Shown here piece after piece: positions 26,783-32,000 of a DNA stretch of 32,000 nt. Position numbers and translations under genes: made by a program. The notes under the pieces are model-generated. The model had not been told where the DNA came from. It made no database searches and saw nothing but the letters and a program-made list of their open reading frames with translations. This stretch comes from Methanosphaera stadtmanae DSM 3091 (lineage in GTDB: Archaea > Methanobacteriota > Methanobacteria > Methanobacteriales > Methanobacteriaceae), in NCBI RefSeq assembly GCF_000012545.1, contig NC_007681.1, positions 1,350,001 to 1,382,000 on the forward strand, written 5' to 3'. Every line of letters starts with the position of its first letter. Position 1 is the first letter of the stretch.

Positions 26783-28003
26783 TTATACAAACATCACTGA
26801 TTCTTTAGAAGATTTATCTTTATTTTTATGCATTACTTTTTCTAAAGCATCTTCAAAGTTTTTAGCTGAGACACTGTGATGTTCTTCTCTTATTGCAAAC
26901 ATACCTGCCTCAGTACATATTGATTTAAGATCTGCACCAGATGCTGATTTTGCATTTTGGGCTATGTATTTTAAATCCACATCTACATCTAATGACATGT
27001 TTTTAGTGTGTATCTTAAGAATTTCTAATTTTCCATCTTCATCTGGAACTGGAACTTCTATGATACGATCAAATCTACCTGGTCTTACAAGTGCTGGATC
27101 TAGAATATCTGGCCTATTAGTTGCTGCTATAATACCAACATTTCCTCTTGATTCAAATCCATCCATTTCTGCTAGAAGTTGCATGAGTGTTCTTTGAACT
27201 TCACGATCTCCACTTGTTGAACCTTGTAATCTTTTTGCTGCTATTGCATCAATTTCATCAATAAATATGATTGCTGGTGCTTTTTCTTTTGCTAATTCAA
27301 ATACTCCACGTACTAAACGTGAACCTTCACCTATATATTTTTTAACAAATTCTGATGCTACTATTTTTATAAAAGTTGCATTTGTTTCATGTGCTACTGC
27401 TTTTGCTAGTAAAGTCTTACCAGTTCCTGGTGGTCCATAGAAGAGAACTCCTTTTGGTGGAGTTATACCTACTTCTTCAAAGATTTTAGGATTTTTAAGA
27501 GGAAGTTCTACTGTTTCTACTGTTTCTAATACTTGATCTTTTAGTCCACCAATTTCATCATAGGTTATGGATGGTTTTTCATCTATTTCCATACCTGATA
27601 CTAATGGATCTTTTTCTGATGTTATAATATCCACAATACTAAATGTTTGTTGATTTAGAGCTACTCTTGCCCCAATTTCTATCCTATCAGAATCTTTTTC
27701 TGGATATTTTAATAGAAATGATGGTCCAGTACTACTTTTTACAACAACTTGATTATCATCCAATATTTCAGATACTGTTGCTAATACAAGTGGTGGTATT
27801 CTAAATCTGTTAATTTCACTTTTCAATGATTTAACTTCACGATCTAACCTTAAGTTTTCATTTTCAAGTAATACTTTATCTTTTTCTAGTTTTCTTACTT
27901 CCCAAGTTAGATTTCGTTCAATTGCTTCATGCTTATCAATTAAATTTGTTATTTCAGTGTTTTCTTTATTTTCAATTGTATTAAATGGTTCTGAATCTTC
28001 CAT
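26783..28003 (-). CDS. pan: Proteasome-activating nucleotidase (AAA+ ATPase)
   Basis: 406 aa. It has an N-terminal coiled coil ([26 protein letters not shown]), an OB region, Walker A GPPGTGKT, Walker B IIFIDEID, and the second region of homology [29 protein letters not shown] is present. Confidence 0.93.
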
Positions 28004-28294: not shown

Positions 28295-28789
28295 ATGAAT
28301 TGTGAAATATGTGGAACAGAAATAAAAGGTCAACCTTATAAAACTAAAATAGATAATTCTCTTATGGTTACATGTAAAGAATGCTCTAGATATGGAAAAG
28401 TTCAACAAAAACCACAACGCCAAGGAAATAATAAAAGAAATAAAAATAATCAGAACAGAAGAACAAATTCAAACAGACCATACACCCGAAAATCTAAAGA
28501 AGAAGAGTATGAACTAGTCGATGATTATGAAAAAACTATTAAACAAGCAAGAGAAAAGAAAAATCTCACACATAAACAACTTGGAGAAAAAATCTATGAA
28601 AGAGAATCTGTTATAGCTAACATTGAAACTGGAAAAATGGTTCCTGATAATAAGATTGCTCATAAATTAGAAAAAGCATTACATATAAAAATTATTGAAA
28701 AAATAGAAAGTAATGAAAGGGAATTCCAAGAGTCTAGACGTTTTAAAGAAGCTACCCTTGGAGATATAGCTCGTATAAAAAGGAAGTAA
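28295..28789 (+). CDS. Archaeal multiprotein-bridging factor 1 (zinc ribbon + Cro/C1-type HTH)
   Basis: 164 aa. It has an N-terminal CxxC...CxxC ribbon (CEICG...CKEC), a basic Asn/Arg-rich linker, then an HTH_3 domain (IKQAREKKNLTHKQLGEKIYERESVIANIETGK) and a conserved C-terminal tail. This is the aMBF1 architecture. Confidence 0.85.
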   Translation: MNCEICGTEIKGQPYKTKIDNSLMVTCKECSRYGKVQQKPQRQGNNKRNKNNQNRRTNSNRPYTRKSKEEEYELVDDYEKTIKQAREKKNLTHKQLGEKIYERESVIANIETGKMVPDNKIAHKLEKALHIKIIEKIESNEREFQESRRFKEATLGDIARIKRK

Positions 28790-28807
28790 ATAATTAATTA
28801 CATTCCT

Positions 28808-29185
28808 TCAATTACTTTTTTTTGAATTTGAAGATTTATTTTTAGAAGAATAATAACCATCAAATATTTTAGATTTACTAAATTCCTTATTTAAATCTTC
28901 ATATTCTGGATATTCTTCACTAATAACAATAACATGAACTGGAGGATGGATTTTTCTTAAATTCATAATACTTGTTGTTGTACTTTCTTGAACTTTAACT
29001 AGAACTGCTATTTTAATATCATCTCTAGGTTCTTGTTTTAAAACTCTTTTTGTTACATCATGCACACTTTTTAAAGAAACCTTCCTAGGTTTTCCTATTA
29101 TTGATAATTTAGCATGCCTTTCTATATCTGCCAAGCCATTTAATGCTTTTTTCTTATTCATAGCCCTAACTAGTATCAATGCCAT
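28808..29185 (-). CDS. Hypothetical cytoplasmic protein, 125 aa, with Lys/Ser-rich tail; no family recognised
   Basis: A GGAG SD lies 8 nt upstream of the ATG. An AT-rich promoter-like spacer separates it from the upstream gene's terminator. The protein has no signal peptide or TM segment. Confidence 0.55.
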   Translation of the reverse strand: MALILVRAMNKKKALNGLADIERHAKLSIIGKPRKVSLKSVHDVTKRVLKQEPRDDIKIAVLVKVQESTTTSIMNLRKIHPPVHVIVISEEYPEYEDLNKEFSKSKIFDGYYSSKNKSSNSKKSN

Positions 29186-29240
29186 AATTTAACTCCTATT
29201 AATTAATATGAAAAAATTGAATATTTATTTAAAATTTAAA

Positions 29241-29281
29241 ATTAAAAAAGAAAATAAAAATAGAAGACTTAACGTCTTCTA
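29241..29281 (-). terminator. Hairpin plus U-tract terminator overlapping the stop codon of the 421-aa gene
   Basis: A perfect 8-bp inverted repeat, TAGAAGAC (29261-29268) / GTCTTCTA (29274-29281), has a 5-nt loop that contains the TAA stop. On the minus strand it is followed by TTTTTATTTTCTTTTTT (29260..29244). Confidence 0.6.
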
Positions 29282-30534
29282 AAGAATGATTTTATTAATG
29301 TACTTCTAAATATAGCTAGTAATATTAATAAAATCCCAATTACACTTTGAATATTTCCAAGTACATCAAATACTTGAGAATCTATTGGTAAATTCCATGT
29401 TGGTGCAGATCTTCCATTTGTTGCAGGAGTATAATATACACCTACTGCTTTAATATTTTCTTTAACATTAATATCTGATGCATCAACATATTCCACACCA
29501 ATTAATGTTCCACTATCTATAGCTTTATTAATTGATTGTGCAATTTTAACTGGATCATAACCATTTTTAGTTACTGATGCTATTACAACACTACTTGTAG
29601 CTTCAGATATTCCTTTTTCATCAGAACCATATGTCGATACTGATGGATTATCATCAGATACTGTTATAGCATTACCTAATGCTTGATAAGCATAAATAAC
29701 TGTAAGTGGACTTCCATCAACAGGAGACACTTGATAATTTTCTGCTTCAGGATAACCTACTGCCCATCCACTAGAACTTACCTTAGAATATGGTTTTTCC
29801 ATTTCATAACCTGTTTGATTTAATTGTTCTGGAGTAAACATATCTCCTGTAGTTACACCAGATACTAGATTTATTGCACCACCACCATGATCTTCTCCAG
29901 AATCTGCAGCTACTTCACCAATTGCTTCTGAAACTATTTTTGTAGCTGGATATCCATCCCTTATCATTTTACCCATGTTTATTGCAGTTTGTAATCTTAC
30001 TGTTTCTGCAGTACCTGATTTTGGGTTTCCATGAGAATTACGAAGATGTATCATAGCCCCTTTAGTTCCTGGAGGTACTGTTGCTAATCCACCACTTGCT
30101 GCTTGAACATTAATTGTACTGTTGTTATCTACTGTAACAACATAAACATCAAAACTTCCCCCTACAGCAATACCTTGTGTTGGGTTAACAGCCATTAGAC
30201 GAATTCCATCAAATCCATTTGCCACATTAACTACCTGTTCAGGAGTTCCATTATTTTGAAGTTGTGTAAGTGCTGATATAATAGCAGCTACACGAACATT
30301 TGAAGAACCTTCCCCCCCTGATAGTAATGCCATTTTATGTTCTTGTGAGAATATAAATGTTGACTGGAACATATTAGCTGCAAATGATTGACTTCCAGCA
30401 GCACACCCATTAGGATCCTTTCCTGTAGGATCTGTAATAACTGCCACATTCATTGTTGCTGATGCAGTAGTTGAAAATAACATGACAATAATTAGAAATA
30501 AAGCTATTTTTGCTAATTTTGATTGTTTAACCAT
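29269..30534 (-). CDS. Exported, C-terminally membrane-anchored protein of unknown family (421 aa)
   Basis: The signal peptide is MVKQSKLAKIALFLIIVMLFSTTASA|T, with an A-S-A cleavage motif. The Gly/Ala/Val/Thr/Ser-rich ectodomain is poor in Lys and Glu. The C-terminal TM segment VIGILLILLAIF is followed by ...SFFRRR. An AAGGTGAT SD lies inside the upstream gene, and the start overlaps the upstream stop (TAATG). Confidence 0.7.
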   Translation of the reverse strand: MVKQSKLAKIALFLIIVMLFSTTASATMNVAVITDPTGKDPNGCAAGSQSFAANMFQSTFIFSQEHKMALLSGGEGSSNVRVAAIISALTQLQNNGTPEQVVNVANGFDGIRLMAVNPTQGIAVGGSFDVYVVTVDNNSTINVQAASGGLATVPPGTKGAMIHLRNSHGNPKSGTAETVRLQTAINMGKMIRDGYPATKIVSEAIGEVAADSGEDHGGGAINLVSGVTTGDMFTPEQLNQTGYEMEKPYSKVSSSGWAVGYPEAENYQVSPVDGSPLTVIYAYQALGNAITVSDDNPSVSTYGSDEKGISEATSSVVIASVTKNGYDPVKIAQSINKAIDSGTLIGVEYVDASDINVKENIKAVGVYYTPATNGRSAPTWNLPIDSQVFDVLGNIQSVIGILLILLAIFRSTLIKSFFRRR

Positions 30535-31082
30535 TATATCACCTTACTTTTTAACTCCTGCAACATTAATAAACCAGTTATTTGGCTAACTCCACCAACT
30601 TCAGCATTTCCTTCAAAGTCAAGATTACTTTGTGAACTTCCATTGGTTGTATTGTTAGTTACATTAACTTGTAATAATGAGAAATCTTCAATAACTGTAA
30701 CAACCACATTCCCAGTTGTTGTATCTACTTGAACACTTGCCGCATTTATAGGAGCTACTGAAGTACCAGGTATTGTTGACTTTTTAACCAATTCTACAGC
30801 ATTCGTTTTAGCATCACTTAATAGAAGTTGTCTTTGTGACGTGACTAGAGTATTTCCATTAATATAACTTCCATCCCTAAAACCAGCAGCCTCTACATTG
30901 GCTTTAATTACACTTGTAGGTATTATATCATTACCTTTAACCATTATTCCAGCAATAGGAACACCATCATCAGTAGTATTTGATGAAGCAAATGCAACAT
31001 AACTCATTGCACGTCCAGACAAAATCAAAATAAATGCTAAAATTAAAATGATTAAAGTATCTCTTCTAACTCGTATAAACAA
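30534..31082 (-). CDS. Exported protein of unknown family (182 aa), first gene of a two-gene cassette
   Basis: The TTG start at 31082 is preceded by a strong GAGGTGA SD (31093..31087) with a 4-nt spacer. The N-terminal sequence has a basic region (RVRRD), a 15-residue hydrophobic core and AFA. It carries several N-x-T sequons (SNTTD, NVTNNTTNGS). Confidence 0.65.
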   Translation of the reverse strand: MFIRVRRDTLIILILAFILILSGRAMSYVAFASSNTTDDGVPIAGIMVKGNDIIPTSVIKANVEAAGFRDGSYINGNTLVTSQRQLLLSDAKTNAVELVKKSTIPGTSVAPINAASVQVDTTTGNVVVTVIEDFSLLQVNVTNNTTNGSSQSNLDFEGNAEVGGVSQITGLLMLQELKSKVI

Positions 31083-31107
31083 AATTTCACCTCTAATCTT
31101 ATATAAA

Positions 31108-31138
31108 TTCTAGTATTATTCTATATTTTGAACTAGAA
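31108..31138. promoter_or_regulatory. 7-bp inverted repeat TTCTAGT-N17-ACTAGAA in the promoter region of the exported-protein cassette
   Basis: TTCTAGT (31108-31114) and ACTAGAA (31132-31138) are exact reverse complements. They lie 26-56 nt upstream of the TTG start and flank or overlap TATA-like elements. Confidence 0.3.
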
Positions 31139-31323
31139 CTACTTTAGAGTATAATTATAAAATAAATAAGTACCATTTATTATAATTAATATACAATTCA
31201 TAAAGTATAAATCTATTATATATTTCTTGATGTTATACTATTTAATTATAACAATATTTTAAAAATTAGTTTTCTTTAATAAAAAATATAAAGGAAGATA
31301 TTAGAATAATTTCTAAAATATAA

Positions 31324-32000
31324 TTATTCATTATCTTTAATAATATCTTTATATTTGAATGCAGCTTCTCCAGTACATACTACTAAGTTAGCATCTAATT
31401 CTAATGCTTTATTAAAACCTACAAGTACCTGTTCAACTGTAGCTCCAAGTGTTCCTTTTTTATCACCTTCAGGCATAGAATCAGGCAACACTATTTTATC
31501 AGTATATTTTCCATTATCCAAAGCATGTTTTGCACATAAATATGCATTGTGTGATGCTGGAACTATGTAATTAGCATGTTCTGCTGCACAATCCAAGATT
31601 TCTTTATCACCATCAATTCCAGATTCTGATGAAGTAGTAATAACATCTACTATAGTACCATATGCATTTTTTAATTCCTTAAGTACTGATGTTATTCCTG
31701 CAGGATTATGGGCATAATCTACCATGATTTGTTTATTATGACTAATTCCTATTTTTTCCATACGCCCTCCAACACCTTTAAATGATTTAACTGCTTCTTT
31801 TATTGTTTCATAAGATATATTTAATGTTTCATGTGCAATTATTATTGCTCCAACTGCATTATATATATTATGTATACCATATATTCCTAATTTAAATTCA
31901 TATTCTTCATTATATGGTGTTTTAAGAATGAATTGATTGTGTTTATCATTTATATTACATGCTAGATAGTCTGGTTTTGTATATTTTAATCCACAATTAC
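31324..32000 (-). CDS. Mur-ligase-family peptide ligase (pseudomurein peptide ligase type), C-terminal ~225 aa; 5' end outside the window
   Basis: The ORF track starts at Met 31761, but the frame stays open to the right window edge. My translation of the upstream part gives ...LGIYGIHNIYNAVGAIIIAHETLNISYETIKEAVKSFKGVGGRMEKIG...VDYAHNPAG. These are the central and C-terminal Mur ligase motifs (GxHNxxNA, GVxGRxE, DYAHxP). In a methanogen this implies pseudomurein synthesis. Confidence 0.85.
   Translation of the reverse strand, partial: NCGLKYTKPDYLACNINDKHNQFILKTPYNEEYEFKLGIYGIHNIYNAVGAIIIAHETLNISYETIKEAVKSFKGVGGRMEKIGISHNKQIMVDYAHNPAGITSVLKELKNAYGTIVDVITTSSESGIDGDKEILDCAAEHANYIVPASHNAYLCAKHALDNGKYTDKIVLPDSMPEGDKKGTLGATVEQVLVGFNKALELDANLVVCTGEAAFKYKDIIKDNE

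Follow-up and report, generated by a model that had tools for sequence, protein, structure and literature searches.

Mfer763/Mfer764, a conserved gene pair of the pseudomurein cluster, in Methanosphaera stadtmanae DSM 3091: a possible surface enzyme with an N-terminal threonine and its POTRA-like partner

Mfer763 and Mfer764 were described by Subedi et al. (2021) as highly conserved, transmembrane (TM)-containing proteins, always encoded downstream of pMurE in pseudomurein Gene Cluster 2 and displaying no homology to annotated proteins (PMC10117817). The same pair was presented by Lupo et al. (2025) as two hypothetical pseudomurein-specific proteins of cluster A (orthogroups OG0001162/OG0001472), 'devoid of known domains', and OG0001472 (one gene of the pair) was annotated, together with the adjacent Mur ligase, as a pseudogene in the reference genome of Methanothermobacter thermautotrophicus Delta H (PMC11915815). 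The present analysis was applied to two genes, geneA and geneB, in a 32,000-nt stretch of the Methanosphaera stadtmanae DSM 3091 genome (NC_007681.1, positions 1,350,001 to 1,382,000; hereafter the window), which by their sequences are this published, uncharacterised pair of the pseudomurein cluster: the geneB product matched NCBIfam NF053642 (Mfer764_fam) with 644.9 bits over residues 26-417 (curated cut-off 560), and the geneA product matched NF053641 (Mfer763_fam) with 212.6 bits over residues 1-136 (curated cut-off 170), while a Pfam scan gave no family in either product. The original prediction, made from the DNA letters alone, had taken the two proteins as belonging to no known family and the locus as a candidate undescribed system; both points gave way to the curated models and to the two publications, in which the pair is a conserved part of Gene Cluster 2/cluster A (PMC10117817, PMC11915815). 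The new element is a hypothesis drawn from predicted folds, of which no report was found in the literature searched: a threonine-type N-terminal nucleophile (Ntn) enzyme that would be activated by signal-peptide removal, plus a POTRA partner.

The extracellular steps of pseudomurein synthesis (polymerisation, cross-linking, and turnover) had no assigned enzymes in the literature, as had been supposed from the start, and transglutaminases were only postulated for cross-linking. When pseudomurein is cross-linked, a terminal residue is lost, and this happens on the ATP-free outside of the cell (PMC2812497); an acyl-enzyme catalyst would therefore be needed. Transpeptidases resembling penicillin-binding proteins (PBPs) do not exist in these archaea (PMC10117817). 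The reading preferred here, tentatively and at somewhat less than an even chance, is that the pair consists of an outside-facing Thr-Ntn amidase or transpeptidase (Mfer764) and a scaffold partner (Mfer763), acting on pseudomurein stem peptides.

Homologues were collected for both proteins (593 for Mfer764 and 405 for Mfer763), the nearest ones with a species or genus name being from Methanosphaera spp., and signal-peptide statistics were taken from the 221 Mfer764 homologues having an N-terminus. The presequence (median 25 aa) combined a basic n-region with a strongly hydrophobic core, and the predicted cleavage site was [A/V/S]-x-A↓T: position -3 was A, V, or S, and position -1 was Ala in 220/221. 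Position +1 was Thr and position +3 was Asn in all 221, Methanopyrus included (SGASA↓TFNMIVITDP). This pattern suggests that signal peptidase, rather than autoproteolysis, exposes Thr27 of geneB; self-cleavage at A26↓T27 may be an alternative exposure route.

The AlphaFold2 model of Mfer764, built from a 72-sequence alignment (mean pLDDT 79.5, rising to block values of 87-97 over residues 81-160; pTM 0.64), placed the beginning of strand 1 exactly at T27. The modelled core followed the order S1-S4, H1-H2, S5-S8, H3-H4, and S9, which is the element order of Ntn hydrolases of the proteasome-beta/HslV type, and the four-layer alpha-beta-beta-alpha sandwich of Ntn hydrolases was present in this predicted structure. 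Foldseek against PDB returned seven matches below 1e-3, all of them circularly permuted human Taspase1 (E 9e-5 to 5e-4, probability 1.00), whose constructs begin with the Thr nucleophile; the next matches were (i) DUF1028 protein 2imh (E 2.5e-3, target-normalised TM-score 0.49) and (ii) HslV 6kr1 (E 6e-3, target-normalised TM-score 0.52), followed by weaker ones to a proteasome subunit, the GlmS glutaminase domain, and EgtC, all Ntn hydrolases. Beyond the N-terminus, Mfer764 contained dense invariant Gly/Asn/His/Arg/Asp motifs (HLRN..GNP, IRDGY, and GE..GGG..N).

The larger product had been predicted to carry a signal peptide, a C-terminal hydrophobic helix, and an RRR end, and all three were confirmed. 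The long C-terminal helix (residues 386-419) was conserved in its membrane part, with G400, L406, F409, R410, L413, and S416 invariant within Methanobacteriales, and it ended in RRR; therefore, the catalytic domain would sit on the outer face of the membrane. The same end of the protein, P-x-W-x-L-P plus TM helix plus basic tail, resembles the three-part sorting signals of cell-wall proteins, and pseudomurein archaea encode a sortase-like protein (PMC11915815), so that Mfer764 itself could be a wall-anchored structural protein, cleaved by a sortase and linked to pseudomurein by its ectodomain; this is highly improbable, given that no LPXTG was found (the motif was LP[IV][DSN][SPA] in Methanobacteriales and PPLKTPIS in Methanopyrus) and that the TM helix was strongly conserved (FRSTLIKSF), unlike disposable sorting signals. 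In the C-terminal ectodomain region, many orthologues (e.g., P0241, P0304, and P0113) displayed a zinc-ribbon-like CPxCG...CPxCG insert at the position of geneB residues ~246-275 (window 29710..29800, minus strand). CxxC motifs were counted in the 221 homologues as two in 84, one in 18, and none in 119, the window protein, whose cysteines at this site are replaced, being among the last. The insert resembles a metal or disulfide knuckle on the outside of the cell, one that Methanosphaera can apparently do without.

The partner, Mfer763, began with a segment (geneA residues 1-24, MFIKIRRDTLIILxLAFILILSGR) that was at least 90% conserved across genera. From this near-invariant segment and the single long AlphaFold helix 7-33, the hydrophobic segment is more likely an uncleaved type-II signal-anchor than a cleaved signal peptide; of the signal sequences originally ascribed to both products, that of geneB thus stood as a Sec signal peptide, whereas that of geneA looked like an anchor. 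The segment was followed by a POTRA-like ectodomain, which ended in the invariant motif EDF (read as VIEDFS in the geneA product) and was modelled as E45-49, H56-65, a hairpin, H88-100, E114-119, and E125-132, so that the beta-alpha-alpha-beta-beta fold of POTRA domains (about 75-90 residues) was found in the predicted structure. The Mfer763 profile matched POTRA2 of Haemophilus influenzae BamA among PDB sequences (6j09_A; whole-sequence E 4.3e-5, domain E 0.003), and the top 14 Foldseek matches of the model were all of the Omp85/TpsB family (13 BamA and 1 CdiB; E 0.09-0.4, best probability 0.93), with TamA and TpsB POTRA domains lower in the list. The alignment had no conservation after EDFS, and the Methanopyrus orthologue comprised the TM helix and the POTRA-like domain, ending three residues after VIEDYG without a tail. 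The geneA product was unusually long (182 aa versus 140-165 in most homologues), and its variable tail contained the sequons NVT, NNT, NTT, and NGS; this extension creates the 1-nt overlap with geneB, the other Methanosphaera loci having short positive gaps. The structure searches assigned no unrelated function to either protein, and the predicted Ntn amidohydrolase and POTRA folds fit the wall-assembly role first proposed for the pair.

The phyletic scan covered one genome per GTDB species and gave 205 genomes with an Mfer764 relative; 80 loci of these were used for the locus counts. The Mfer763 gene lay directly upstream of the Mfer764 gene on the same strand in 80/80 loci, with a distance from stop to start of -8 to +18 nt in 76/80, and the coupling is well beyond chance because of this adjacency and spacing; a tightly coupled pair of exported or membrane-anchored proteins had been predicted, and it was recovered here. 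The labels of the 80 loci were of the Methanobacteriales type, except for two that were apparently mis-binned: L038 (JBNGDB010000017.1, labelled Methanomicrobiales) and L074 (CAVDAS010000044.1, labelled Bacteroidaceae) each harbored the full arrangement of Mur ligase, 763, 764, and DUF356, and these labels probably reflect mis-binning or mis-assignment rather than occurrence outside pseudomurein archaea. The HMMER profile of Mfer764, searched against 1.84 billion representative proteins, gave 63 matches (two full-length clusters, the rest being fragments or fusions) and no relative outside the family. The orthologues of Methanopyrus passed the NCBIfam cut-offs as well (571.3 bits for 764 and 171.5 bits for 763), and the family is confined to pseudomurein archaea, being present in both pseudomurein orders. 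In all of Methanobacteriales, and likewise in Methanopyrus, the two genes thus lay side by side and next to a pseudomurein Mur ligase, and no other group was found to have them; this is the distribution that the original prediction had asked for.

Four of the fusions (P0293, P0289, P0246, and P0254) joined Mfer764 fragments to unrelated sequence, such as a GT8-like N-terminus or an acidic low-complexity region before the C-terminal anchor, or a radical-SAM-like tail behind the Ntn core. Chimeras of metagenome assembly or gene calling are their most likely origin, rather than domain shuffling. The shared C-terminal tails on unrelated N-termini (P0293 and P0289) had raised the idea of a transferable sorting signal, which was dropped because they look like assembly chimeras.

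The gene contexts of four genera shared the core ATP-grasp, MraY-like, pMurE, 763, and 764, which recurred in Methanothermobacter, Methanobrevibacter, and Methanopyrus, while in Methanosphaera pMurD1 and pMurC were inserted between pMurE and the pair. Gene order, TM predictions, the company of pMurE, MraY-like, and ATP-grasp genes, and the confinement to pseudomurein archaea all agreed with what has been published for Gene Cluster 2/cluster A, but the gene directly upstream of the pair here was pMurC, not pMurE as in the published Gene Cluster 2, pMurE being located two genes further up. The Mfer764 gene was apparently single-copy and universal, and it lay within the cluster for pseudomurein precursor synthesis in both orders. 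This placement bears on a protein-directed role, in which Mfer764 would be a Taspase/Connectase-like protease or ligase that matures wall proteins (S-layer or adhesin-like) or attaches them to pseudomurein as a sortase analogue. Such a role would suit the top structural matches to Taspase1, which is a site-specific protease, the many wall-associated adhesin-like proteins of pseudomurein archaea, and Connectase, a methanogen protein ligase of Ntn fold (PMC7980362). It is nevertheless improbable: adhesin repertoires are lineage-specific, in contrast to a universal gene kept among the precursor-synthesis genes, and a separate sortase-like gene is found in pseudomurein archaea (cluster C of Lupo et al., PMC11915815).

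According to the preferred reading, the two proteins, as part of the pseudomurein cluster, would together make up a module on the outer side of the cytoplasmic membrane. Mfer764 would be exported by the Sec pathway, and cleavage at A26↓T27 would leave Thr27 as the first residue, opening strand 1 of the Ntn core, so that export itself, rather than the usual autoproteolysis, would create the N-terminal-nucleophile active site. Through its C-terminal TM helix and basic tail, the enzyme would stay at the membrane surface, where lipid-linked pseudomurein precursors emerge; Mfer763 would act as a minimal FtsQ/DivIB-like scaffold that docks or regulates Mfer764, and translational coupling would supply the two in a fixed ratio. 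The O-gamma of Thr27 would attack an amide of the pseudomurein stem, most plausibly the Lys-Ala bond that loses its terminal residue during cross-linking, and the resulting acyl-enzyme would be resolved (i) by the amine of a neighbouring stem, giving a cross-link (transpeptidation), or (ii) by water, giving carboxypeptidase-type trimming. The cleavage at A26↓T27, the catalytic competence, the substrate, and the interaction of Mfer763 with Mfer764 are features that we infer; this chemistry is proposed for Thr27 because the gene belongs to the pseudomurein cluster and is restricted to pseudomurein archaea, and because its product would face outward and combine a covalent-catalysis fold with an invariant candidate nucleophile. 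That Mfer764 is specifically the cross-linking transpeptidase of pseudomurein is doubtful, and equally doubtful is the further proposal that it represents a third mechanistic class of wall transpeptidase, with an N-terminal Thr exposed by signal-peptide removal, in complex with a minimal FtsQ-like POTRA protein; the other classes are the Ser-dependent PBPs and the Cys-dependent L,D-transpeptidases. The two genes may have arrived together with the Mur/MraY cluster, which derives from bacteria, or may have been recruited to it.

The pair could also work without catalysis, as a divisome- or elongasome-like adaptor in which an FtsQ-like POTRA protein and an Ntn-fold pseudo-enzyme position or regulate the real pseudomurein synthases (the MraY-like enzyme, a flippase, or a polymerase or cross-linker). 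The unusually conserved TM helices of both proteins suggest protein contacts within the membrane, no canonical Ntn accessory residues were identified in Mfer764, and the build of Mfer763 (bitopic plus POTRA) and its place at the end of a Mur-ligase cluster parallel ftsQ and the position of that gene in the order of the bacterial dcw cluster. The content of the bacterial dcw cluster was taken from PMC9871819. Such an adaptor is unlikely, however, as the invariant +1 Thr and +3 Asn are hard to explain without chemistry at the N-terminus, and the three motif blocks of Mfer764 look like an active site rather than the surface of a scaffold.

Several results weigh against an Ntn enzyme with a POTRA partner. 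The Foldseek TM-scores of Mfer764 were modest (target-normalised 0.41-0.53, root-mean-square deviation 4.7-6.4 Å), and the model, with its mean pLDDT of 79.5, was built on an alignment of little depth, whose sequences were at least 57% identical to the query. Sequence methods returned none of the recognised Ntn families (Asparaginase_2, DUF1028, Proteasome/HslV, GATase_2, Penicillin amidase, and GGT): (i) Pfam, applied to the window protein and 31 Mfer764 members with E up to 10, gave none; (ii) the Mfer764 profile against PDB sequences gave no Ntn match and only a chance one to GH95 at E 1.8; and (iii) hhalign of Mfer764 against the Escherichia coli EcAIII beta-subunit, eight DUF1028 proteins (aligned from plasmid records), and E. 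coli HslV gave probabilities of at most 0.3%. An N-terminal likeness noticed by eye between TMNVAVITDPTG..G.AAGS of Mfer764 and TFSILAHDPETG..GGAAATGS of DUF1028 was set aside as no evidence because of these hhalign probabilities. No invariant Lys or Asp was found in Mfer764 for the proteasome positions Lys33/Asp17, the only invariant Lys being K251, with none in or before strand S3; an invariant SGG.G at the S4-H1 junction, where proteasomes have Gly47, offers a positional analogy only. The equivalence of T27 to an Ntn nucleophile, like any oxyanion hole, is something we infer from the model, and the literature favours transglutaminase-like proteins for pseudomurein cross-linking. As for Mfer763, the structural POTRA matches were weak (E 0.09 or worse), and Pfam POTRA PF07244 appeared below threshold (E 0.087) in 2/43 members with E up to 10. 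Much of this would be expected if the fold assignment were wrong or uninformative and a generic four-layer sandwich (e.g., PP2C-like) had an unrelated role such as binding or sensing; BFVD gave nothing significant for Mfer764 and listed PP2C/RsbU-type proteins at ranks 1 and 21. This is distinctly unlikely, since independent Ntn families dominated the PDB list with probabilities of 0.8-1.0, the PP2C-type match at rank 9 had a TM-score of 0.17-0.20 and a root-mean-square deviation of 18.8 Å, and the invariant N-terminal Thr is an independent feature, taken from sequence alone, of the kind that an Ntn enzyme predicts.

Methanobacteriales are the main methanogens in the rumen and in the human gut, and they owe their resistance to lysozyme and beta-lactams to pseudomurein. 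The fold-level reading makes a missing step of pseudomurein synthesis testable, as it offers a predicted surface enzyme, a defined partner for it, and Thr27 as the one predicted catalytic residue. If Mfer764 were a cross-linker or an essential trimming enzyme, inhibitors or vaccines against methanogens would have in it a target that is accessible and specific to the lineage, archaeal wall cross-linking would use an enzyme class different from that of bacteria, and the POTRA/FtsQ-like partner would bear on the share of the bacterial dcw toolkit in the archaeal wall cluster; if not, the locus would be one ordinary occurrence of a conserved pair that is already published.

At the locus itself (Table 1), geneA and geneB overlapped by 1 nt in TAATG (30536..30532), formed by the geneA TAA (30536..30534) and the geneB ATG (30534..30532). 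The overlap, the Shine-Dalgarno sites, and the TTG start of geneA were as originally described, by direct reading and from the starts of homologues: the N-termini of Mfer763 homologues aligned as MFIK(I/V)RRDT, the TTG codon was the aligned residue 1 in 13 Methanosphaera loci, and G(A/G)GGTGA was kept just 5' of the start in 14 Methanosphaera-type loci, all of which support the TTG start. The stem-loop over the geneB stop had a folding energy of -10.3 kcal/mol (z = -3.8; 0/200 shuffles folded as well), was directly followed on its 3' side by TTTTTATTTTCTTTTTT, and recurred at other Methanosphaera loci. A run of five or more T, frequently accompanied by this hairpin, was found 3' of the Mfer764 stop codon in 14/14 loci of the Methanosphaera type, versus 19/66 others, and the terminator after Mfer764 is a Methanosphaera feature; the hairpin terminator originally assigned to the unit thus held for this genus but not for others, where DUF356 can follow within a few bases.

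DUF356 was located downstream of Mfer764 on the same strand in 79/80 loci, with a median gap of 64.5 nt among 78 loci measured and a gap of 1-18 nt in 14 loci, down to 1-5 nt in some, and it may belong to the same unit as the pair in other genera; DUF356 gave no match against PDB. The gap between the Mur ligase and Mfer763 genes had a median of 152 nt, and in the window an AT-rich spacer of 241 nt separated pMurC from geneA. From the T runs, the DUF356 gaps, and the 152-nt Mur ligase gap, the pair is probably a transcription unit of its own, or has an internal promoter, in many genomes. Alignment of the 150 nt upstream of Mfer763 from 14 Methanosphaera-type loci revealed only the conserved Shine-Dalgarno sequence and no clear B recognition element (BRE) or TATA box; a bacterial sigma-70 promoter scan, whose model is not applicable to an archaeon, stayed at chance level, and Rfam gave no match in window 28700-32000. 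The pMurC gene runs off the window, and its full-length counterpart on the near-identical Methanosphaera contig L091 scored 747.5 bits.

In Methanopyrus kandleri AV19, the place of DUF356 was taken by a 369-aa polytopic membrane protein, encoded 2 nt downstream of 764 (L081 11253..12362, plus strand) and without a Pfam or NCBIfam match; it is probably the pseudomurein-specific OG0000796 of Lupo et al. and could be a candidate for a membrane step, e.g., polymerisation or flipping. Synteny extended beyond the wall genes in the Methanosphaera, Methanothermobacter, and Methanobrevibacter contexts (L091, L092, and L093): NikR, methyltransferase, and HycI genes were found upstream of the ATP-grasp gene, and a divergent HTH_3 gene and the PAN proteasome-activating nucleotidase gene were found downstream. 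This extended order was common to Methanosphaera and Methanothermobacter, while Methanobrevibacter had a shorter AAA gene instead of PAN.

Table 1. Features of the Mfer763/Mfer764 locus in the window, and gene orders of the compared contexts
Feature	Window coordinates	Strand	Basis or content
geneA (Mfer763 family)	30534..31082	-	182 aa, TTG start; NF053641 match
geneA Shine-Dalgarno sequence GAGGTGA	31087..31093	-	4 nt 5' of TTG, read directly
geneA residues 7-33, N-terminal TM helix (probable signal-anchor, RxRR N-terminus inside)	30984..31064	-	AlphaFold helix, block pLDDT 81-94
geneA residues 41-134, POTRA-like ectodomain	30681..30962	-	beta-alpha-hairpin-alpha-beta-beta; block pLDDT 86-94
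geneA residues 135-182, variable N/S/T-rich tail with N-x-S/T sequons	30537..30680	-	pLDDT <50 for 140-170
geneB (Mfer764 family)	29269..30534	-	421 aa, ATG start; NF053642 match
geneB Shine-Dalgarno sequence AAGGTGAT	30538..30545	-	within geneA, read directly
geneB residues 1-26, Sec-type signal peptide ending A-S-A	30457..30534	-	basic n-region, hydrophobic core
Thr27 codon, predicted mature residue 1, proposed nucleophile	30454..30456	-	+1 conservation; model strand 1 starts at 27
geneB residues 27-235, predicted Ntn-hydrolase-like alpha-beta-beta-alpha core	29830..30456	-	S1-S4, H1-H2, S5-S8, H3-H4, S9
geneB residues 236-385, C-terminal ectodomain region	29380..29829	-	secondary structure from model; no fold assignment
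geneB residues 386-421, juxtamembrane helix, TM helix, and cytoplasmic RRR tail	29272..29379	-	AlphaFold helix 386-419
Hairpin (8 bp) over geneB stop plus T-rich tract, terminator-like	29251..29281	-	stem-loop itself 29281..29261
pMurC gene, 3' part	31324..32000, runs off window	-	NCBIfam NF053645, 177 bits, profile positions 356-492
DUF356 gene	28808..29185	-	PF04009, E 1.2e-38
HTH_3 gene, divergent	28295..28789	+	
PAN proteasome-activating nucleotidase gene	26783..28003	-	
L091, near-identical Methanosphaera contig			HycI, ATP-grasp, MraY-like, pMurE, pMurD1, pMurC, 763, 764, DUF356
L092 Methanothermobacter and L093 Methanobrevibacter			ATP-grasp, MraY-like, Mur ligase (pMurE by position only), 763, 764, DUF356
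L081 Methanopyrus kandleri			pMurC, ATP-grasp, MraY-like, pMurE, 763, 764, 369-aa polytopic membrane protein

Among known systems, Taspase1/type-2 (plant-type) asparaginase gave the best structural matches to Mfer764. The model shared with these enzymes the alpha-beta-beta-alpha sandwich and a strand that opens with a Thr (in Mfer764 the proposed nucleophile), and the chain order of Mfer764 was that of the engineered Taspase1 circular permutant, with the nucleophile first; Mfer764 differed by having no detectable sequence similarity, a nucleophile that would be freed by signal peptidase and not by autoproteolysis, an extracytoplasmic and TM-anchored location, and an extra C-terminal domain. 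HslV/proteasome beta displayed the same element order starting at Thr1, and HslV had the highest target-normalised TM-score (0.52-0.53), with an hhalign probability of 0.1%; compared to them, Mfer764 lacked an invariant equivalent of Lys33 or Asp17 and would probably be monomeric and membrane-anchored rather than a cytoplasmic ring. Gamma-glutamyltranspeptidase (GGT) is a secreted or periplasmic Thr-Ntn transpeptidase that self-processes from a precursor and forms an acyl-enzyme on gamma-glutamyl amide bonds, resolved by aminolysis or hydrolysis. It served as the working analogy for Mfer764, namely, acyl-enzyme Thr-Ntn chemistry outside the cytoplasm, although it was not among the top Foldseek matches and shared no sequence similarity. 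Pseudomurein stems contain gamma-Glu and epsilon-Lys amide bonds (PMC10117817), and Connectase is an Ntn-fold transpeptidase of methanogens (PMC7980362).

Mfer763 resembled FtsQ/DivIB in its bitopic build, with an N-in TM helix leading into a POTRA-type domain, and in being encoded at the distal end of a cluster of Mur ligase and MraY genes. It differed in lacking the C-terminal beta-domain, its ectodomain of about 95 aa being followed by a disordered tail or nothing; moreover, no FtsQ/DivIB chain was matched in the PDB sequence search with the Mfer763 profile, which leaves Mfer763 outside FtsQ as a family, the four gene contexts read showed no FtsA/FtsZ genes in their flanks, and the pseudomurein cluster lacks ftsZ (PMC9871819). 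The POTRA domains of Omp85/BamA/TpsB gave the only significant sequence-profile match and essentially all top structural matches of Mfer763, while Mfer763 had a single domain on a TM helix, with no beta-barrel, in an archaeon without an outer membrane, and an extra beta-hairpin between the two helices.

PBPs, L,D-transpeptidases, sortases, and transglutaminase-like proteins share the role proposed here, that of an extracytoplasmic, ATP-independent acyl-enzyme transpeptidase. No match to the PBP transpeptidase, YkuD L,D-transpeptidase, sortase, or transglutaminase-like families was found for Mfer764 in Pfam, NCBIfam, PDB sequences, or Foldseek, and the nucleophile proposed for Mfer764 would be an N-terminal Thr, in contrast to the Ser or Cys of the known wall cross-linkers.

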